Below, piece by piece: positions 3,170-31,900 of a stretch of 32,575 nucleotides of DNA (within the stretch, counting starts at the first letter, position 1; each line of letters opens with the position of its first letter). Source of the stretch: Nemertoderma westbladi. Lineage: Eukaryota > Animalia > Xenacoelomorpha. The stretch covers positions 1-32,575 of the forward strand of contig JAUCBJ010007684.1 in assembly GCA_032718475.1 (NCBI GenBank), given 5' to 3'. Position numbers and translations under genes: made by a program. A model generated the notes under the pieces. The model made no database searches. It was not told the origin of the DNA and saw only the letters and a list, made by a program, of their open reading frames with translations.

Positions 3170-3890
3170 AAATTTTGTCTAGGGATATAAATAACTACTA
3201 TAAACGGGAACGGGATATGTACAGAGTGTGGGGTTACGAGTACAACTACTTTACGCAGTGGATACAGAGTAATATCTGGAACGGAACGCCGGGAGCTGAC
3301 TGGGAAACCTTATTCCAATACGTGTTACGAGGGTTGGCCCAAATTGGGAAAGCAGAGAAGATGGAGCGGGGTCGCATATTGGGTCGCAAGATGGAGGATA
3401 GTACGGAGTGGAGCAGAAGACAAAGGGACGAACATGAAATACCAAGGTAGGCAGTACGGGAGCGGCTGGTGTTTAGACCGTTGGTTAAACGCACAGCGCG
3501 GGGGGCCCGGAAGGGGGGGGGGGAGTCTACTAGTGGGAAAGCGGGTCTGGTAAATAACGTAGTGAACTTATCCTCTGTGGATATCACTGAGGAACAGAGG
3601 GAAATTTTAAGTTTGGGATTTGGTTACGTCCCGGTAAGGGAAAGGGGTTTAACGGATTTAATCGATGCGCACACCAGTGTATCTAAATTGGGATCCAAGT
3701 TAAGAAACGTTGTGCGTAGACGGGAGCATTTAGAAGATACGATACCGGTACAGGGAGGGGAGGCACGTATATTGACGGAACGGGGGCCAGAACAACGGGA
3801 AGTGTCCTTCGTCGCTATGCTGGAGAATGTGGGTTACGTTGTTCAACCAAGGAGGAGGGATAGAGATCGAGGGAGTGGGAGCGCATATAT
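3170..3890 (+). mobile_element. Penelope-like element N-terminal ORF fragment (upstream of RT), degraded
   Basis: VVNLSSVDITEEQREILSLGFGYVP (~3559-3633) matches the NLS..LT..E..VLSKGL.F.P pattern that precedes the RT in Penelope-like elements; no RT or GIY-YIG domain remains. Confidence 0.65.
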
Positions 3891-4159
3891 ATGCGGTACC
3901 CGAAAAGCCACTGCTCCAGAAAAGCCACTGCTCCCCTTGGGTTATATTATGTTATAAATACTTTTGAAAATATAACATGCAAAATATATCTTTTTTTCTA
4001 TTGGGTGAAATTCGATGAAACAAAAACAAATGGGTAGATAATATTGTTAATATTGGATTTTTATTGTAGTTGTTAATGTAATGTTGCGTAATTTAATGTT
4101 ATAGCATTTTCGAACATGACGCAATATTGAAGGCTCTTCAGGGACATGTTATCTATATA

Positions 4160-5134: not shown

Positions 5135-5354
5135 ATAAAATTTCAATAAGAAGCCTCCACGCACACCAACATAATTAATAAATGCAAATTAATGAATGCA
5201 ACGATAACAACTAACCGTAAACTACCTCAAGTAGAGCGTCTCCAATCTCGCGGAAATGTTCAATTCAAATGAAGAACTACTATGAAGTACTACTACTAAG
5301 GAATGAAATCCTACTACACAGCAGTTTGTAGCCTACAGTCACACAGTTAGTACA
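5135..5354. repeat. 220-bp dispersed direct repeat, copy 2
   Basis: Near-identical to 239-458. Confidence 0.95.
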
Positions 5355-6439: not shown

Positions 6440-8905
6440 AACTCTATAAATTGTTTTTGGTGTTGTACTCAGTGGGTGTTATAGTGATGTTGGAACTCTA
6501 TAATTGTGTTTGGTGTGGTACTCAGTGGGCGTTATAGTGACGTTGGAACTCTATAATTGTGTTTGGGACATGGTTCTCAGAGGGTGTTACGGAGATGTTG
6601 GAACTCTATAAGTTGTGTTTTGTGTGGTGCTCAGTGGGTGTTATAGTGATGTTGGAACTCAATAATTGTGTTTGGTTTGTGATGCTGATTGGCTGTTATA
6701 GAGATGTAGAACTCGATAATTGTGTTTGGTGTTGTACTCATTGGTCGCTATAGAGATGTTGGAACTCAATAATTGTGTTTGGTGTTGTACTCAGTGGGCG
6801 TTATATTGATGTTGGAACTCTATAATTGTATTTGGGACATGGTTCTCAGAGGGTGTTATGGAGATTTGGAACTCAATAATTGTGTTTGGTGTGGTACTAA
6901 GTGGGTGTTATAGTGATGTTGGAACTCAATAATTGTGTTTGGTTTGTGATGCTGATTGGCTGTTATAGAGATGTAGAACTCGATAATTGTGTTTGGTGTT
7001 GTACTCATTGGTCGCTATAGAGATGTTGGAACTCAATAATTGTGTTTGGTGTGGTACTCAGTGTCTGTTATAGAGATGTAGAACTCTATAATTGTGTTTT
7101 GTGTTGTACTCATTGGTCGCTATAGAGATGTTGGAACTCAATAATTGTGTTTGGTGTGGTATTCAGTGTCTGTTATAGAGATGTAGAACTCTATAATTGT
7201 GTTTTGTGTGGTACTCAGTGGGTGTTATAGTGATGTTGAAACTCTATAATTGTGTTTGGTGTGGTACTCAGTGGGCGTTATAGAGATGTTGGAACTCAAT
7301 AATTGTGTTTGGTTTGTGATGCTGATTGGCTGTTATAGAGATGTAGAACTCTATAATTGTGTTTGGTGTTGTACTCAGTGGGCGTTATAGAGATGTTGGA
7401 ACTCAATAATTGTGTTTGGTGTGGTATTCAGTGTCTGTTATAGAGATGTAGAACTCTATAATTGTGTTTTGTGTGGTACTCAGTGGGTGTTATAGTGATG
7501 TTGAAACTCTATATTTGTGTTTGGTGTGGTACTCAGTGGGCGTTATAGAGATGTTGGAACTCAATAATTGTGTTTGGTTTGTGATGCTGATTGGCTGTTA
7601 AAGAGATGTAGAACTCTATAATTGTGTTTGGTGTTGTACTCAGTGGGCGTTATAGAGATGTTGAAACTGAATAATTGTGTTTGGTGTGGTACTCAGTGGG
7701 TGTTATAGTGATGTTGGAACTCTATAATTGTGTTTTGTGTGGTACTCAGTGGGTGCTTTAGAGATGTTGGAACTCAATAATTGTGGTTGGTGTGGTACTC
7801 AGTGGGCGTTATAGAGATGTTGGAACTCTATAATTGTGTTTTGTGTGGTACTCAGTGGGCGTTATAGAGATGTTGGAACTCAATAATTGTGTTTGGTGTG
7901 GTACTCAGTGGGTGTTATAAAGATGTTGGAACTCAATAATTGTGTTTGGTGTTGTACTCAGTGGGCGTTATAGAGATGTTGGAACTCTATAATTGTGTTT
8001 GATGTGGTACTCAGTGGGCGTTATAGTGATGTTGGAACTCTATAATTGTGTTTTGTGTGGTACTCAGTGGGTGTTATAGTGATGTTGTAACTCTATAATT
8101 GTGTTTGGTGTGGTACTCAGTGGGCGTTATAGAGATGTTGGAACTCAATAATTGTGTTTGAATGTGATGCTGATTGGCTGTTATAGAGATGTAGAACTCG
8201 ATAATTGTGTTTGGTGTGGTACTCAGCGGGCGTTATAGAGATGTTCGAACTCAATAATTGTGTTTTGTGTGGAACTCAGTGGGCGTTATAGAGATTTTGG
8301 AACTCAATAATTGTGTTTGGTTTGTGATGCTGATTGGCTGTTATAGAGATGTAGAACTCTATAATTGTGTTTGGTGTGGTACTCAGTGGGCGTTATATAG
8401 ATGTTGGAACTCAATAATTGTGTTTGGTGTGGTACTCAGTGGGCGTTATATAGATGTTGGAACTCAATAATTGTGGTTGGTGTGGTACTCAGTGGGCGTT
8501 ATAGAGATGTTGGAACTCTATAATTGTGTTTGGTGTGGTACTCAGTGGGCGTTATAGAGATTTTGGAACTCAATAATTGTGTTTGGTTTGTGATGCTGAT
8601 TGGCTGTTATAGAGATGTAGAACTCTATAATTGTGTTTGGTGTGGTACTCAGTGGGCGTTATAGAGATTTTGGAACTCAATAATTGTGTTTGGTTTGTGA
8701 TGCTGATTGGCTGTTATAGAGATGTAGAACTCTATAATTGTGTTTGGTGTGGTACTCAGTGGGCGTTATATAGATGTTGGAACTCAATAATTGTGTTTGG
8801 TGTGGTACTCAGTGGGCGTTATATAGATGTTGGAACTCAATAATTGTGGTTGGTGTGGTACTCAGTGGGCGTTATAGAGATGTTGGAACTCTATAATTGT
8901 GTTTT
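6440..8905. repeat. 53/54-bp tandem satellite, ~46 units with recurring variant types
   Basis: Consensus AACTCTATAATTGTGTTTGGTGTGGTACTCAGTGGGCGTTATAGAGATGTTGG (units at 8781 and 8834 are 53 bp apart); a 54-bp variant carries TTTGTGATGCTGATTGGCTG. Confidence 0.98.
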
Positions 8906-9386
8906 TATGTGTTTTTAATTGTGTTTAATTTTATTAATTAATCATTTTGTTTATTAAATTGTAAGGGCTTTTGTGGCCCATGATCAAATTTAATGAATAT
9001 TTTCAATATCCAGTCAATGTTTAGTAAAATATTTGATATCTTGTCAAATAATTGTTATAATTTAAAATATCTTGTCAAATATTTAACAATATGTTCTTAC
9101 AAATATTGTTAATATATCTTGCCAATTCTGAAAGATTGAAATTTCCACATGTCTATTTTGACAAGATAAGATATAAATCCTGACAAGATATTAATTGAAG
9201 TTTTCACCAGATATTTTTGACAAGAATATCCCTATTATTCTGACAAGATAAAGGACAAGTGTATTTAACTATAATAAATGAATTGTTGTGGGGTGAGTGA
9301 CGGTTAGTTAAATATATAATGTAGATAGGACAATATGATAATGCTCTCCATAGCGAAAAATATCAACCGACCCTGTTGGGGCTCGA

Positions 9387-9430
9387 ACCCGGTACCTAGG
9401 TTTCAAACTTACGGTTATCATCAGCCGGGT
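9387..9430 (-). ncRNA. Minimal type I hammerhead ribozyme motif (left arm)
   Basis: Exact reverse complement of the motif at 9587-9630. Confidence 0.75.
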
Positions 9431-9562
9431 GTGTGTACTGAGCTACCAGATCGGATGAAGATTTCACTATGGAGTGGGATATCATATTTAGTGATTAGAG
9501 TGATGTGATTGAGTGATTAGTTGGCCTAAATATGATATCCCACTACATAGTGAAATCTTCAT

Positions 9563-9663
9563 CCGATCTGGTAGCTCAGTACACACACCCGGCTGATGAT
9601 AACCGTAAGTTTGAAACCTAGGTACCGGGTTCGAGCCCCAACAGGGTCGGTTGATATATTTTT
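9563..9663 (+). promoter_or_regulatory. tRNA-derived Pol III unit: A box, B box and T5 terminator (mirror copy on the minus strand at ~9356-9454)
   Basis: TAGCTCAGT at 9572-9580, GGTTCGAGCCC at 9628-9638, acceptor-like pairing CCGATCTG/CAGGGTCGG, TTTTT at 9659-9663. Confidence 0.7.
9587..9630 (+). ncRNA. Minimal type I hammerhead ribozyme motif (right arm)
   Basis: ACCCGG-CTGATGA-TAAC CGTAA GTTT-GAAA-CCTAGG-TA-CCGGGT: 6-bp stem I, intact core CUGAUGA/GAAA, palindromic stem III ACCUAGGU, predicted cleavage after GUA (9624). The stem II closing pair is U-U rather than G-C. Confidence 0.75.
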
Positions 9664-9905
9664 CGCTATGGAGAGCATTATCATATTGTCCTATCTACAT
9701 TATGTATTTAACTAGATATATCTTGTCATTCTATATTTTTTTTGTCAATTTGACAGAACTTTTTTTAAGAGTGTAGTTAATTTTATTAATAAAAGTTTAA
9801 AAAATTAATAAATTACTTTACAGTTGTTTTTTTTGATCGTCGACATGAAATTTTATGGAAATGTTGACGAAAGTTAGAAAAATTGGAATGCCTGTACTAC
9901 TCCCC

Positions 9906-13869: not shown

Positions 13870-13904
13870 GACGTTTCGACCTTACTTGGTCTCATCAGCG
13901 TGGT
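13870..13904 (-). ncRNA. Hammerhead motif copy 1, 3' side replaced
   Basis: ACCACG-CTGATGA-GACC AAGTAA GGTC-GAAA-CG-TC followed by TTGGCA, which cannot pair with ACCACG. Confidence 0.65.
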
Positions 13905-14089
13905 GTCGGATTCGAACCTGGGACCTCGAGGAGGAAGCCGAGACTACAACCACTAGGCCACAGGTTCTTGAGATATGGAGTATTAATTTCAAAGCCAGCT
14001 GCCATTTTATTAGCCCATGATTTTTGTATGTTTTAAAATTGTAGGACTAATCCCATCACATGCGTACTTTTTAACCGGGTAGTGTACAA

Positions 14090-15633
14090 TGTGATGGGAT
14101 CAGGGGATCCCGACCAGTTAGGTTTATTTACGCGTCAGCTGCACCGTGTAGTTTGAGTTTGTTATTGTTCCAATATTCTTAATAGATGTATAAAATATAG
14201 TGTACGATGTAAGTATAATAGCAGATAGCACAGTTGACCGGTATGTGTGATATAATCGGCGACGGCAGTGACGGTCTTAAAGTGTCACCGTACTGCCCTA
14301 AGTGACTGAGTAAACTGAATTGTGATGGGCACTTGCACCATTCTTGTTTATTATTGTGGTTGACTATGTTCTACGCATGTCCTTAGATCATCATAATGAT
14401 GATGGAGTGATGATAACTCCACCTACTGGCTCCAGAAGTCGAGGAAATCCTGCCAAGTACCTAACTGATCTAGACTTTGCTGATTACTTAGGAGTACTCT
14501 CAGAATCATTAGAGGGAGCCCAACGGCTCCTCAGCTCATTAGAACATGCTGCTTCTAGTGTTGGTCTTTTTATTAACTCCAGAAAGACCAAAATTCTGAC
14601 AGTTAACTTTGAAAGTCCTCAGCAAGTCTCTGATCGGATGAGCATAAGCTCAAAGGATGGTATGCTTGAGCATGTGGACGACTTCTGTTACCTGGGATCA
14701 TGGATCCGGAAGTCAGGTGAGGACCTTCGAATACGTAAGGGAAAGGCATGGGCAGCCTTGAATAGGCTTTCCAGGATTTGGAAGTCACCGAGAATTAATC
14801 GGAAACTTAAGGTCCGATTATTTAGAGCAGCAGTAGTTCCAGAACTCCTCTACGGGAGTCCATGCTGGGCTCTAACTGCTGAGGACACCAAATCTCTGGA
14901 TGGCACATTCACAAGAATGCTACGCCGGGTTCATTGTGTCAAGTACAATGCACACATCTCCAACCAGACACTATATAACATTGGAGGTGTCTCATTGGTT
15001 CCCCCAAGCTTGACACTAGAACAAAATCGCCTCCGGTTTGCAGGACATTGCTTTCGCCGTGAGGACCAGCCAGTGCATAATCTTGTACTTTGGCAGCCTT
15101 ATGGAGTGAATAAGCATGGTGGACAGCCCATGACTTTCTTGAGACGCATCTTAAAGGACACTGGCCTTAAAGATGCGGATGATCTAGCAAATGTCATGGG
15201 TGATAGGGAGTTGTGGCGGTGCAATTTTGTTGACAAGCCGGCACAGCATTCTTAAAAATGCAGCTGCAATGCAGCATGCCGATCCTAGTAGTAGTAGTGA
15301 TGGGCACTGACCGGTAATAAATACATTGGTTAGCTACATTACTTATGGCCATTGTACCTAGCGGATGCATTTCCTGGCTCTGATTGGCCAATAACCTAAT
15401 TCTTGCCTCCACCTCTGTGGGAGTGTTTCCCCCCACCCAGCTGCTGTCACTTTCCTCTCCCGGAGGTTTAACCTCTGACCTCCCTTTGTGTGGCCCTTCG
15501 GGGTTTGTTGTTCCCATTTATCGGGTGTGTGATACGAGGTTAATTGGGGATTAACCTCGTATCCCCAATATGGCTTAAAGGCGCCACTTCCCACTTTATG
15601 GGGTTTGGTGAGGCGGAATTGAATCCGCTCACA
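14090..15633. mobile_element. Solo LTR (~570 bp after removing the nested LINE) with 5-bp TSD
   Basis: Termini TGTGA...TCACA; TACAA duplicated at 14085-14089 and 15634-15638; removal restores the array unit GTAGTGTACAAATTTTAGG; AATAAA at ~15316. Confidence 0.85.
14334..15296 (+). mobile_element. 5'-truncated RTE-clade LINE (RT C-terminal half)
   Basis: APFLFIIVVDYVLR, LTDLDFADY (FADD mutated), DDFCYLGSWI, RLRFAGHCFRR; (TAG)n tail 15286-15296; 12-bp TSD GTGATGGGCACT at 14322-14333 and 15297-15308. Confidence 0.93.
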
Positions 15634-15690
15634 TACAAATTTTAGGAATTGCATAATTTTTCTTGAAATTAATATCTCATATCTCTCTAA

Positions 15691-15733
15691 ACCACGTACG
15701 CGTTTCGACCTTACTGGGTCTCATCAGCGTGGT
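15691..15733 (-). ncRNA. Minimal type I hammerhead ribozyme, intact (copy 2)
   Basis: ACCACG-CTGATGA-GACC CAGTAA GGTC-GAAA-CGCG-TA-CGTGGT: 6-bp stem I, 4-bp stem II, palindromic stem III, predicted cleavage after GUA between 15697 and 15696. Confidence 0.9.
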
Positions 15734-16101
15734 GTCGGATTCGAACCTGGGACCTCGAGGAGGAAGACGAGACTACAACCACTAGGCCGCAGGTTCCTGA
15801 GATATGGAGTATTAATTTCAAAGCCAGCTGCCATTTTATTAGCCCCTGATTTTTGATTATTGATAGTAACAATATGTTGCCAAGCTGTATTTATCGAGGT
15901 GTTTGTTATTATACATTTATTATAGGAAGGGATCTAGGGGTCTTAACCTCGAATGATAAGTTTATTTTACCGAAAATAACTTTTCTTTTATTGGCGCAAT
16001 TGTAGGACTAATCCCATCACATGCATACTTTTTAACCAGGTAGTGTACAAATTTTAGGAATTGCGTAATTTTCTTGAAATTAATATCTCATATCTCTCCA
16101 A

Positions 16102-16144
16102 ACCACGTATGCATTTCGACCTTACTGGGTCTCATCAGCGTGGT
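16102..16144 (-). ncRNA. Minimal type I hammerhead ribozyme (copy 3)
   Basis: Same core and stems I/II; stem III is GAAA-TGCA-TA, still palindromic; cleavage triplet AUA. Confidence 0.8.
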
Positions 16145-16511
16145 GTCGGATTCGAACCTGGGACCTCGAGGAGGAAGCCGAGACTACAACCACTAGACCA
16201 CAGGTTCTTGAGATATGGAGTATTAATTTCAAAGCCAGCTGCCATTTTATTAGCCCATGATTTTTTATTATTGATAGTAACAATGTGTTGGCAAGCTGTA
16301 TTTCTCAAGGTGTTTGTTATTATACATTTATTATAGGAAGGGATCTAGGGGTCTAACTCGAATGATAAGTTTATTTTACCGAAAATAACTTATCTTTTAT
16401 TGGCACAATTGTAGGAGTAATCCCATCACATGCGTACTTTTTAACCAGGTAGAGTACAAATTTTAGGAATCGCGTAATTTTTCTTGAAATTAATATCTCA
16501 TATCTCTCCAA

Positions 16512-16554
16512 ACCACGTATGCGTTTCGACCTTACTGTGTCTCATTAGCATGGT
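16512..16554 (-). ncRNA. Degenerate hammerhead (copy 4), probably inactive
   Basis: Core reads CTAATGA instead of CTGATGA; substitutions in stems I, II and III. Confidence 0.7.
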
Positions 16555-16675
16555 GTCGGATTCGACCCTGGGACCTTGAGGGGGAAGCCGAGACTACAAC
16601 CACTAGGCCACAGGTTCTTGAGATATGGAGTATTAATTTCAAAGCCAGCTGCCATTTTATTAGCCCCTGATTTTT

Positions 16676-17137
16676 CAGATTGGATCCCACCATATCTACT
16701 GAACGATTATTCATCAACTTCAGTGCTATGATATCGTGTTTATAGAATACCTCAGTTTGACCGCGAGACATCAAATTATCACCAATAAAGTTAGGCAAAT
16801 TAACTCGATTTGTTTGAATGGTACCTAAGGAGTAGATGCCACGCTCGAATAGCGTTTGAACTAACTTTACAGAGTTGAAAAAGTTATCAAAGTATACCCA
16901 GGCATATGTGCCTTCCAGCTGTGCAGTTAGCCTGAGAATAACAGCTTCTCCCAATCCATGTTCAGAAGAATCCTTCGCACCTAAATATATCTCAATAACA
17001 TATATATACCCAGACTTGCTATCTGCCCGTATCCATAGCTTGAAGCCCCACTTGATAGGTTTCTTTTTAACGTATTGTTTCATTAGAGAACGCCCTTTGA
17101 ATTTACACATGTGTTCATCAACACATGTCCTTCTGTA
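16676..17137 (-). mobile_element. piggyBac transposase fragment (DDE_Tnp_1_7-like)
   Basis: VDEHMCKFKGRSLMKQYVKKKPIKWGFKLW...VYFDNFFNS...GIYSLGTI includes the first two catalytic Asp motifs; truncated at the hammerhead array. Confidence 0.95.
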
Positions 17138-23393: not shown

Positions 23394-23860
23394 ATGACTG
23401 ACTTTAATTCAGGTCCATATAATTTAAACTTTCAAATGGGAACGAGTATGATAATTTCTGGCCCATCTGGTTCAGGAAAGTCAACATTTGTCAGCAATTT
23501 AATTAAACACAAGAATGGCTGCTTCAACGAACCCCCCTTGCGAGTATTGTATTGTTACGGGAGCAATCCCCCGACTATTCCCGGTTTTACTCACCTTTAC
23601 AAAGGTTTGCCAGAAAATATAGATAGTTTAGTGAATAGTCGAGATTTATTAATTATAGATGATTTATTAACAGAAACTGAGTCCAGTACAGCTTTAACTG
23701 TATTGTTTACTAAGGTAGCTCATCATTCCAATATATTTATTTGTTTTATAATGCAAAACATGTTTTACAGTGGGAAGCATAACCGCACAAGATCAATTAA
23801 TAGCCATACCTTAGTATTAATGAAAAATCCGCGAGATGTAAAGTTAATTGGGTTAATAGG
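23394..23860 (+). pseudogene. Polinton/Maverick packaging ATPase (A32/FtsK-HerA family), C-terminally truncated
   Basis: Walker A GPSGSGKS, Walker B LLIIDD, LFTKVAHHSN, MQNMF, RTRSINSHTLVLMKNPRD; similarity is lost shortly after NPRD. Confidence 0.9.
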
Positions 23861-26097
23861 GTTCATCACCCGCTGCATATAAGAATCAGGGTAGATGCCA
23901 AGGTGCCACCCATGGCCTACTTTATAAGAGGCCATGACAACGCACGGGCAAATAGCTGACTTGGAGGCCACTTTGTTTATGGGTGTAAGTCGGAATATAT
24001 GGTAGATACAAACTTCTAACCTTTACCTACCCCCACTAAGTCGATGCTGAGGATCTCAAATATCATATTTAAAATTGTTTATCTCGAGACCGTGTTGCTA
24101 TGGCAACATCTAATCAGTGGATACCGGTTGACCGGTATTTGTCTGTCTGTATAGCATCCCTGCTAACCAGACACGCTACACGCTATTATACCAAACGTTT
24201 GTTTATATGCTTGAATCATGTTGACATGTTTTTTTTCTAAACTTGTTTTAATCAACATGTTATTTTAACATCTAAATAACATAATATCCAATCATGTTAT
24301 AATCAAACATTTGTTGATCACGTTGTTATGATACCTAAATGTAACATGTTTTATCATGTAATTATTTAACATTTGTTTTACACGTTATTGTGTAACATAA
24401 ATCATACATGTTTATTCCAGCTGTTTGTTAAATGCTACTTTGTCGTGTTGAACAAACGTCCGGCACATCATTGCCAATATGTCTTAAGGCTGTTTGAATA
24501 AACCGCCTAAAATTTACCGCCAAATTCGTTTATAGGCCTATAAATCATGCAGCAGTGCATGCAGTACTGCAGTACATCAGTCAGTCAGTAGACACTCCAC
24601 TGCCTGCCCCAGCCTACCAGCACCCACTCAGCCCTGCAGCCACATTCTGAGAGCTTGACAGTAGTGCTGCAGGTAGGCAGTGTGTAGGCCAGCTGTTTAC
24701 TGGTTTAAGTGCTGCAATAGGGTTGACCATACTCTGATACTGCCATATGTTTGTTTACTGCCGTATGCCTATATCTGTATATTAACTGTTTAAGTTATTT
24801 TTAATTAAGCTTCATACTGCCTGACTGTCATATAAACTGATAAATCTTTTTATATTATACATTATATGTTATATAGGCCTACATAACATATATAATATAT
24901 AATACATAATACTGTAATATATGTCATATACATTATATATTATTTATGTACATTATATAGGCCTAGCAGCCTAGCCTAATTGTATTGTAATACCAGAATA
25001 CAGTAATATGTCTGTATGTAATGCAGTCAGGCAGTGCAGTGCCAGTAATTCGATGACGACGACAGTTTAGATTGGGCTCTGTCTTCCTGGCGCTGGTTGG
25101 TCGAAACAACAGGCAAGCGGCAAGGGCTGCACTGGCAGACTGGCTGACTGGAAAAATATTATGGCCTCCTCGAAATGCCGGCCTACTACCGGTACAGCAG
25201 TACGTTGGAAAGAATTTTCGAATCCAGATCTTCTGTCAACTGTCAAGTTGGCCCACATTTAATGCGAAGGTTCTTCACTTAACAGGTTTGTATTGAACTT
25301 GAATAGGCTGCTTACACATCGTTATTTCAGTGATTCAAGTGATTAAAATCCTAATCCTGTAATCTATTTGGATCAAATAGAGGGAAAAAGCGCCGGCGGT
25401 CGGAAGTAAATTACACATGCCAGCATGCGGTCCCAGGCAGCCAGCTAAAGATAAGATACGCATCAGATTCTGGCGATGAGGTTATTATTTTACTTACTAC
25501 TACTGTACTAGGCCTTGCTGTTAGGTTAGGCCAACTTTGGGCCGTTTATAAATCGTCAGATCGTGCATATGCTTAAACTGTAATTTAAAATAAAACATGC
25601 CTTACTCTGGCTATCTATGGTAGGTAAGTAAATGTTTGCTTTATTTTTTACTCATTTCCTCTTTATAAACCAGTCCCCAGTGCAGTGGTAATGTGAAACA
25701 GTCTGTGATGGGTTGTGGTGACTTGTGCACGTTGATCTAATTGCTCCAATGCTATATGTATATATATTATTATCATTTTAGGTGGAATATATGAGCGACA
25801 ATGAATCCAATCATGTTTCCAATACGATACTCACACTGATTACCCAGACAACTAACAATACGTTGATCATTGATACTCAGAGGTGAGTTGTGATACCGCC
25901 TCTCCCTCTATCTACAACCTAACCCTATTCTAAGACAACACTAAACTCTAGACTTACCTAACCAAACCCTTTCACCAAGCTACCACTATATATCCCATGG
26001 CGATATTTTCTCGAAATATTTTCCAGTCTCGATGTTTTATATATCAAGACGCTTTTTTATACTTTTGGAAGCAGAGACAGAAGTTGGGCGAGACAGA

Positions 26098-26645
26098 AGT
26101 CACAGCCACTCAAAGCTATGTTACAACCACTCAATGCTATGTCACAGCCAATCAACGCTATGTCACAGCCACTCAATGATATGTCACAGCCGCTCAATGC
26201 TTTGTCACAGCCACTCAAAGCTATGTCACAGCCACTCAAAGCTATGTCACAGAGCCACTCAACGCTATGTCACAGCCAATCAACGCTATGTCACAGCCAC
26301 TCAATGCTATGCCACAGCCACCCAACGCTATGTCACAGCCGCTCAATGCTATGTCACAGCCGCTCAATGCGTCACAGCCGCTCAATGCTTTGTCACAACC
26401 ACTCAAAGCTATGTCACAGCCACTCAACGCTACGTCACAGTTACTCAACGCTATGTCACAGCCACTCAACGCTATGTCTCAGCCAATCAACGCTAGCCAC
26501 CCAACGCTATGTCACAGCTAATCAACGCTATGCCACAGCCACTCAATGCTATGCCACAGCCACCCAACGCTATGTCACAGTCACCCAACGCTGGCCACCC
26601 ATCGCTGGCCACCCAACGCTGTGTCACAGCGACAGCCACTCAACA
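26098..26645. repeat. 21-bp minisatellite, ~26 copies
   Basis: Unit GTCACAGCCACTCAACGCTAT with point variants and small indels. Confidence 0.97.
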
Positions 26646-26815: not shown

Positions 26816-27476
26816 ACGGATATCCTTGGTGGATCGGACTCCGGATTCAGTGATATCGACGGATCCTTGGTGGAACGGACTCCGGATTCAGTGATATCGA
26901 CGGATCCTTGACGGAACGGACTCCGGATTCAGTGATATCGACAGATCCTTGGCGGAACGGACTCCGGATTCAGTGATATCGACGGATCCTTGGCGGAACG
27001 GACTCCGGATTCAGTGATATCGACGGATCCTTGGTGGAACGGACTCCGGATTCAGTGATATCGACGGATCCTTGGCGGAACGGACTCCGGATTCAGTGAT
27101 ATCGACGGATCCTTGGCGGAACGGACTCCGGATTCAGTGATATCGACGGATATTTGGTGGAACGGACTCCGGATTCAGTGATATCGACAGATCCTTGGCG
27201 GAACGGACTCCGGATTCAGTGATATCGACGGATCCTTGGCGGAACGGACTCCGGATTCAGTGATATCGACGGATCCTTGGCGGAACGGACCTCCGGATTC
27301 AGTGATATCGACGGATCCTTGACGGAACGGACTCCGGATTCAGTGATATCGACGGATCCTTGGCGGAACGGACTCCGGATTCAGTGATATCGACGGATCC
27401 TTGGCGGAACGGACTCCGGATTCAGTGATATCGACAGATCCTTGGTGGAACGGACTCCGGATTCAGTGATTTCGAT
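26816..27476. repeat. 41-bp minisatellite, ~16 homogeneous copies
   Basis: Unit GACGGATCCTTGGCGGAACGGACTCCGGATTCAGTGATATC (GACTCCGG at 26837 and 26878). Confidence 0.98.
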
Positions 27477-30723: not shown

Positions 30724-31335
30724 GTGCCACCCAAGCGCCCAGTGGTTACAGGTTAGAGTGCTGGTTGGTGGCCCACCGTGACATGGATGCGTAGAGCCGA
30801 CCGTTAATTCTGAGGTTTCTTCAAACAGCTGACTTAAGACGCGCATGTGAGCTGCACCACGGGGATTAGGTACTGCAAAGTAGTCCAACTTGTAGTTCCT
30901 TTCTATTATGCCCAAAGCTATTGGAACCAAACATGGGTCCAAAGAGCCTTTCTGACAGCTCTCTCTTAATGACTTCGCTAAACATTCTAGGTCAATAGAC
31001 GGGTTTTTATCCAAGCGGGAGGAGCGTTGGAAGCTCGGTCGAAAAGTTCCCTAGATACTTACCCAAGAAGTTGTGCACTGAGTTATACTCCCAATAGTCT
31101 CCCTTTTCAATTCCGTATGTTTTAGGTATGGAATCGTTGGTTCCCAGAGCTCTTTCAAAGAGGCTATTTGCCATTGCTGCTAAACAAATCGAAATGAATT
31201 TGAGCTTTCGATGACTTTCCAGTATTTCCTGCCAATTACTTGTCTTATTTTCTTTGATCCACTCTCTTGCGTAGTCCTGAATTACAAGTTCTGATTTGAT
31301 AATAGATACAAAGTCGTCACTACTTTGAATTTTAC
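30724..31335 (-). pseudogene. Unidentified coding fragment (~200 aa, one frameshift at ~31015) continuing at 23902 across the P element
   Basis: Open reading KIQSSDDF...LPTLL then LDKNPSIDLECL...NHWALGWH; after excising the P element it continues in frame LGIYPDSYMQRVMNP. Confidence 0.55.
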
Positions 31336-31900
31336 TTAAGGGGAGATGGAACCCTTAAAATTTTCAAAAAAATAAATTTTTTGAGGTTTTTTTTTAAGTT
31401 GTTTAAGATCACAATTTTCCGTAGATTATGGATATTGACACTTTAAAACCATATCATGAGCCCAAACCGCTTGAAACTCTGTCTGTTTGTCGGTTAGTTT
31501 GTTTTTTGTCTGCTTGTGAAAATACAGTGTAAAAAATTTCACTACATTTAGCTAAAACTTTTGGCTATGGGGTTTTCCTGGTCTGAGATTTCATTTAAGG
31601 TATCAGTTTCTAAAATTTATTGAGTCTAGTCCTATCTGTCCGTTTGTCTGTCTTTTTATTCTGTCTGTCAAAATATAAAAAAATACACCAGACCTAACTA
31701 AAGATATTGCTATGGGGTTTTTCTGGTCTGTGATATCGATTCTGGTATCAGTTTCTACAATTTATGGAGTCTAGTCCTATCTGCCCGTCTGTCGGTCTTT
31801 TTAGTCTGTCTGTCAAAATATAAAAAATACACCAGACCTAACTAAAAATTTTGCTATGGGGTTTTTCTGGTCTGTTAATTCGTTTCTGGTATCAGTTTCT
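31336..31900. mobile_element. Start of a TTAA-flanked (Kolobok-like) non-autonomous element with ~145-bp subterminal tandem repeats
   Basis: TTAA then GGGGAGATGGAACC at the point where the upstream ORF breaks off; GCTATGGGGTTTT recurs at 31564, 31709, 31853; the other end was not found in the window. Confidence 0.5.

Follow-up and report, generated by a model that had tools for sequence, protein, structure and literature searches.

The window, by which we mean the whole 32,575-nucleotide stretch of Nemertoderma westbladi DNA analyzed here (contig JAUCBJ010007684.1), is animal-like and repeat-rich and contains fragments of BEL, piggyBac-like, LINE, and other transposons. A preliminary description had reported four head-to-tail motifs near its middle, each consisting of an A box, a B box, and a hammerhead ribozyme. 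Four minus-strand modules are indeed present, with the three elements found in that order in every one of them (Table 1), but only 2.5 units now adjoin, copy 4 lying beyond a 1,544-bp insertion. The modules are bracketed by the imperfect inverted repeats of about 23 bp that the same description had noted, which we recovered at the copy 3 positions given in Table 1.

Table 1. Positions of the 411-bp array, its neighbors, and the second hammerhead family in the window
Feature	Position	Strand	Basis
Tandem array, 2.5 units of 411 bp (copies 1 to 3)	15634..16675	-	TRF (period 411, 94% matches); blastn
Copy 1 module: arm, A box 16600-16610, altered B box 16558-16568, hammerhead with core G5>A, arm	16484..16642	-	
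Copy 2 module: arms 16210-16232 and 16074-16096, A box 16190-16200, B box 16148-16158, hammerhead 16102-16144	16074..16232	-	
Copy 3 module: arms 15799-15821 and 15663-15685, A box 15779-15789, B box 15737-15747, hammerhead 15691-15733	15663..15821	-	Includes Rfam RF00163, 26 bits
Copy 4: 53 bp of spacer (14037-14089), 11 unrelated bases, then 13872-14025; holds 5' arm, A box 13950-13960, B box 13908-13918, hammerhead ending at GAAACG	13872..14089	-	
411-nt monomer predicted from the cut sites of copies 2 and 3	15697..16107	-	Circular and linear folds
T4 run, the sole possible Pol III terminator in the unit	15973..15976	-	Equivalent at 16385 in the previous unit
Insertion splitting the array, 1,544 bp, solo-LTR-like; ends TGTGA...TCACA on the minus strand, TTGTA on both sides	14090..15633	.	
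RTE-like LINE 3' fragment nested in the insertion; (TAG)n tail, 12-bp target duplication	14322..15308	+	RVT_1 and DUF6451 matches
piggyBac-like transposase fragment adjoining copy 1	16676..17137	-	PF13843, E = 6.8e-33
Second family: 27-nt arm, A box 9572-9580, type I hammerhead core 9593-9624 (ACCUAGGU palindrome, GUA), B box 9628-9638, T5, 27-nt arm	9526..9714	+	
Opposite-strand partner of the preceding copy (98-99% complementary; 34-nt spacer between them)	9305..9491	-	

Evidence at the level of the family came from contigs of public sequencing runs aligned on the window and from pattern scans. One contig of run X5 departs from the window at 15633, the edge of the insertion, and in other copies of the family, run contigs join 14089 directly to 15641 without it. 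The array was therefore once four units in a row, the last of them internally deleted. Copy 4 is missing about 140 bp of spacer and ends 4 nt short of its cut site, so that it has neither the 3' strand of stem I nor the 3' repeat arm. Copies 1 and 4 start at a common A-tract, AAAAATCA (window positions 16675 and 14025; unit position 15855/15856), and at least 8 contigs of run X1 terminate at this same start, which may mark the natural end of the element or a hot spot of recombination in the A-tract. The LINE fragment nested in the insertion, which we take to belong to the RTE clade, is marked by run contigs with loose ends at 15293-15298. The end of the LTR-like insertion (14089-14103) inversely matches the repeat's own spacer 27 nt away (14047-14061; 14 of 15 bases).

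Self-blast revealed no link between the unit and any other part of the window, and the window yielded no Penelope partner with sequence in common with it. A frame at 3451-3957 (plus strand) has no Pfam match and no hammerhead beside it; a stretch of it recalls what we take to be the N-terminal region of Penelope-like reverse transcriptase (RT) proteins. A Pox_A32/FtsK-like ATPase fragment with weak Pfam matches lies at 23394-23882 (plus strand), presumably as in Maverick-type elements. A 220-bp direct repeat (239-458 and 5135-5354; 98.6% identity, 4.9 kb apart) encloses a 275-aa frame in which SGNH-like motifs were seen by eye and which has no Pfam match. Minisatellite arrays with periods of 53 bp (6440-8904), 21 bp (26099-26592), and 41 bp (26822-27475) are also present, and a faint Flu_PB1 match (31007-31354, minus strand; 15.2 bits, cut-off 26.4) is probably due to chance.

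A chance origin of the modules that combine promoter boxes and a hammerhead is excluded. In all four the hammerhead core starts 9 nt after the B box, and 60 simulated double-strand windows yielded neither an A + B pair nor a strict hammerhead. When the window was scanned with a profile built from 94 tRNAs, the four heads ranked at the top (13.4, 13.4, 12.5, and 7.5 bits, against at most 5.5 bits in 20 shuffled windows); this profile is biased towards the B box, since some of the tRNAs, taken from collected loci, had been gathered by B-box pattern. The module fold is likewise more stable than expected (z = -3.8). A crude gapped test gives the 23-nt inverted repeat (87% match, arms 113 nt apart) only moderate significance by itself (P = 0.02). 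The head is not a recognizable tRNA gene: ARAGORN called 0 genes in the window, Rfam returned no tRNA match there at E values up to 10, and neither recovered the cloverleaf of a functional tRNA gene. The Rfam scores obtained, 26 and 24.2 bits, fell below the gathering thresholds of 34 and 52.

The hammerhead is of type I, with a 6-bp stem I, a 4-bp stem II, and a 2-bp palindromic stem III. It had been described as intact in copies 2 and 3. The complete motif is present in both, but copy 2 has an AUA triplet instead of GUA (palindrome AUGCAU, predicted cut at 16108/16107), and copy 3 carries a change that breaks distal stem I, besides the T8>C substitution of its A box. The palindrome of copy 3 is the canonical ACGCGU, and its predicted cut site, 15697/15696, has the GUA triplet located there beforehand. 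The hammerhead of copy 1 is likely dead given its core G5>A substitution, and the B box of this copy is also changed. In all, the ribozyme is complete in two of the four copies and damaged in the other two, and every copy bears some lesion. The dimer form of stem III would be mismatched between adjacent copies (-3.5 and -3.1 kcal/mol, versus -7.5 kcal/mol for copy 3 with itself), and no adjacent pair at the locus yields a perfect one. Between copies 2 and 3, 7 of 20 substitutions are of the CpG type (16 CpG sites per unit), and this share, along with the lesions, indicates a locus that has been decaying since insertion. Judging from its sequence, the array at 15634-16675 is likely inactive or weak.

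The family to which it belongs is abundant, with 3,157 contigs of run X1 and 1,258 of run X3 (both public DNA runs) falling on one unit. The family majority differs from copy 3 at about 10 places and restores T8 of the A box (15789) as well as the distal pair of stem I (15688). Among the rows listed, no other majority change falls in the core, the palindrome, or the boxes, the core and palindrome being as in copy 3. A wrap-around joint, 16045>15641, occurs in runs X1 and X4 and fits tandem units. In summed depth, which is no copy number, the unit reaches about one-quarter of the nested LINE's value and clearly exceeds the BEL fragment. In X4, guessed to be an RNA run, depths were 112.6 for the LINE, 13.8 for the unit, and 2-4 for the BEL fragment, the same rank order as in the DNA runs; X4 thus gives no evidence of expression and looks like low-level DNA. 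None of the runs listed as containing the family is on record as an RNA run. We considered a 441-nt X4 contig that wraps around the unit as a possible circular RNA and rejected it, since the X4 profile follows DNA abundance. Exact family patterns gave 0 matches in the genome contigs and viral contigs scanned. Generic scans for a B box plus hammerhead returned 5 and 11 viral loci and 44 metagenome loci, none of them like the unit by blastn.

RNA folding was predicted for the monomer from 15697 to 16107. Its linear fold had a z score of -2.7, and the fold was better than 99 of 100 shuffles in both linear and circular form. In the predicted circle, pair probabilities for stems I and II were 0.76-1.0, and those of the stems and bracket were mostly >0.9. 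Stem I extends through UCCGA/UUGGA, for which the end of the B box is used, and then through the two arms in runs of 8 + 2 + 12 bp separated by single bulges, while the tRNA-derived part projects as a rod made by pairing of the 5' leader to the B-box region. Together, the lengths of stems I and II and the palindromic stem III correspond to the metazoan type I form that has been called "canonical" and described as cleaving as a dimer (PMC4209133); by analogy, the 2-bp palindromic stem III of the unit would likely require cleavage as a dimer. The T4 run lies 131 nt beyond the cut site, where no majority variant is found among the rows listed, and may, by its sequence, stop Pol III. Selection against Pol III terminators was considered and rejected: compared with shuffles, the transcribed strand is not significantly short of T-runs (P = 0.40-0.48). 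By a binomial count, the unit has 1 T-run versus 8 A-runs (P = 0.04).

A descriptor scan of the window identified two further hammerheads, at +9593 and -9424, in an inverted pair of 190-bp copies that we term the second family (Table 1). Its 27-nt bracket is imperfect, and the T-stem strand running into the B box doubles as the 3' strand of stem I. In the predicted fold, stem II, with 3 bp over a U-U pair, is weak, and stem I has a probability of about 0.5; Rfam called no hammerhead in 9305-9714. A 12-bp direct repeat at approximately 9260 and 9703 may be a target duplication. Common sequence in the brackets of the 411-bp and second families was looked for and rejected (P = 0.41 and 0.34). A pattern with the second-family order matched 8 viral loci, all chance-like by eye. 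Our search of open-access papers found no description of a hammerhead between A and B boxes. If the second family is what it appears to be, a ribozyme would stand in place of the anticodon arm, cutting would separate the two promoter boxes, and a whole promoter would be regained only in circles or tandem copies. Such a split-promoter family would be more surprising than the 411-bp array, should it prove real, repeated, and cleaving.

One of the 44 metagenome matches, L051 (contig of 1,468 bp; minus strand, ~780-920), contains a 1,341-bp wrap-around unit that combines A and B boxes with a type I hammerhead (GUA triplet, palindromic stem III) and telomere-like CCCTAA motifs. It has no T4 run on the transcribed strand (P = 0.02) and resembles a telomere-linked Penelope/Terminon-type non-autonomous element. 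By sequence, L051 appears to be a third promoter-hammerhead unit, with the design of Sm-alpha and the 411-bp array. Stem II had at least 4 bp in 30 of the 44 matches (36 distinct matches), versus about 5% by chance. Several matches (L001, L002, L006, L010, L016, L024, L042, L043, and others) are phage-like tRNA genes with hammerheads ~0-25 nt after them, and these hammerheads may process tRNA-cluster transcripts. We propose only tentatively, and with more doubt than conviction, that Pol III-driven hammerhead retrozymes are a recurrent kind of animal mobile element and no peculiarity of flukes, arising repeatedly when a hammerhead is grafted onto a tRNA gene within an inverted-repeat bracket; the window would hold two unrelated builds.

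We consider it likely that the locus preserves a degenerating member of a highly abundant tandem family, its unit 411 bp long, that acts as a non-LTR retrozyme and is built like Sm-alpha. The unit size and the arrangement of 2.5 units plus a split-off fourth are consistent with this class, as is the type I motif in each unit, intact in the family majority. The unit appears noncoding, with one 92-aa stop-to-stop frame on the plus strand; its GC content is 39%, it has no LTR or PPT, and no TG...CA ends or PBS were seen by eye. The order of A box, B box, and then type I hammerhead is that of Sm-alpha. A conventional tRNA-SINE has a different build from what was found, since the head is internal, there is no tail, and no duplication flanks the array. 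TRIM and MITE readings of the unit were rejected on anatomy, the former for want of TG...CA ends and a PBS. The earlier reading of the array as a tandem retrozyme with type I hammerheads and a promoter derived from a tRNA holds. The novelty it implied does not, for a tandem promoter-then-hammerhead repeat transcribed by Pol III is the published description of Sm-alpha (PMC6765202). The family appears to be new, and the design was already known.

We envisage the following life cycle. TFIIIC would probably bind the boxes, with Pol III starting just ahead of the A box. The resulting RNA would not be tRNA shaped; its 5' leader and B-box region would form a rod, and the last B-box bases would serve as the distal part of hammerhead stem I. 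Through the 2-bp palindromic stem III, two hammerheads would pair as a dimer and cut after GUA, and transcripts that pass T4, or that arise by Pol II read-through from outside, would be reduced to 411-nt monomers by successive cuts. The 23-nt arms could then zip the monomer ends together for ligation, probably by RtcB, a step to which we give even chances; RtcB circularizes axolotl and mussel monomers in vitro (PMC7229834). Cutting would leave the promoter at the 3' end of the monomer, so that only tandem copies could be expressed and arrays would be favored. Reinsertion of multimers by a borrowed RT, most likely of the Penelope type, is a step we lean slightly towards; a borrowed and probably Penelope-type RT has been suggested for retrozymes (bioRxiv 10.64898/2026.07.22.740005). 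The end of copy 4, 4 nt from the cut site, would fit copying begun at a self-cleaved 3' end. Counted against the cleavage model, only 1 of 9 predicted retrozyme dimers of Xenopus was cleaved in vitro (bioRxiv 10.64898/2026.07.22.740005). On these models, cutting into ~410-nt monomers and circles is plausible for the family; the case is weak at this locus, given that no adjacent pair forms a perfect dimer stem III, that each spacer has a T4 run, and that X4 resembles DNA.

The same features could be read in other ways. The unit might be a satellite derived from a retrozyme or a Penelope pLTR, with the tRNA-like piece as a passenger, any transcription coming from Pol II read-through, and growth mainly by unequal crossing-over. 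Such an origin would account for the lost cloverleaf and the T4 run in each unit and would agree with a 2020 review in which retrozymes seem promoterless and dependent on read-through (PMC7761336); a route from pLTR to satellite has also been proposed (bioRxiv 10.64898/2026.07.22.740005). However, the family majority keeps both boxes at consensus despite rearranged tRNA stems, and the same boxes stand beside hammerheads in the second family and in L051, and we consider a passenger promoter unlikely. Less probable still is an RNA of ~230 nt that is ended by Pol III at T4 (15973-15976 and 16385), is cut only in trans, gives neither monomer nor circle, and moves like a SINE. The palindromic stem III would permit the necessary trans-dimers, and trans cleavage has been reported for Sm-alpha (PMC6765202), yet the array ends without a poly(A) or simple-repeat tail, and unit-length RNA is the better fit to the tandem layout and to arm pairing across the cleaved monomer.

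A DNA element of the MITE or Helitron type, in which the 23-nt repeats are transposon ends and a SINE head and hammerhead have been captured, would explain the imperfect inverted repeats around the module and could draw on the piggyBac-like fragment that adjoins the array. We regard it as very improbable: the arms are internal to the unit, the spacer flanking them is common to all copies, no pile of loose ends occurs at the arm tips among the run-contig rows listed, and in the predicted RNA the arms form 22 bp interrupted by two single bulges, in continuation of stem I.

The joining of a tRNA-like promoter to a hammerhead was reportedly described by Ferbeyre in 1998 for Sm-alpha of schistosomes (blood flukes). 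Sm-alpha has a promoter followed by a hammerhead, is transcribed by Pol III, and is left with its promoter at the 3' end once cut, hence its tandem arrangement (PMC6765202); its A and B boxes have been marked (PMC2576457), and it is of tRNA-Gln origin (PMC2770079). The 411-bp unit shares with the SINE-like hammerhead retroposons Sm-alpha and Sj-alpha (see also PMC8490949) the tRNA-derived A and B boxes before a type I hammerhead, an often tandem arrangement, and a very high copy number and, by prediction, the promoter at the 3' end of the cleaved unit. It differs from Sm-alpha in its majority loop, CT-TCC-A, which appears Gly-like, in contrast to derivation from tRNA-Gln(TTG), and in its length of 411 bp, compared with 335 bp for the Sm-alpha-like W36.2. 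Its hammerhead scores only 26 bits on RF00163 (threshold, 34), the comparison with Sm-alpha being one of descriptions, and it has an inverted-repeat bracket, which the available parts of the cited literature do not mention for Sm-alpha. Further comparison literature is found in PMC3531059 and PMC3088659.

Tandem units of 150-450 bp with a type I hammerhead and GC of <50% are also typical of metazoan non-LTR retrozymes (PMC7229834; bioRxiv 10.64898/2026.07.22.740005), which, like the unit, are described as lacking an LTR, PBS, and PPT and as having a strongly self-paired predicted circle. The unit, known here as DNA, departs from them in its Pol III boxes, whereas retrozymes seem promoterless according to PMC7761336. 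Penelope pLTR hammerheads likewise are of type I, with a short palindromic stem III that needs a dimer, in tandem or inverted arrangements (PMC4209133). Unlike Penelope elements, the unit has no RT or GIY-YIG open reading frame, and its helices are canonical (6 and 4 bp), not those of minimal PLE. The TRIMs Cassandra, Helenus, and Ajax are comparable in being non-autonomous, sometimes tandem, and equipped with a Pol III promoter derived from a small RNA, but they are LTR elements with a PBS and PPT and no hammerhead (PMC10886601). In the open-access papers searched, no Pol III retrozyme outside schistosomes was described, although the supplementary figures of PMC7229834 may hold unannotated units. 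To the view that retrozymes seem promoterless (PMC7761336), Sm-alpha is the old exception. A high-copy family with consensus boxes outside Sm-alpha sequence offers a direct test of Pol III-driven circular RNA and of tandem persistence. Promoter-boxed retrozymes outside flukes are thus of some value, and the array extends a known design.
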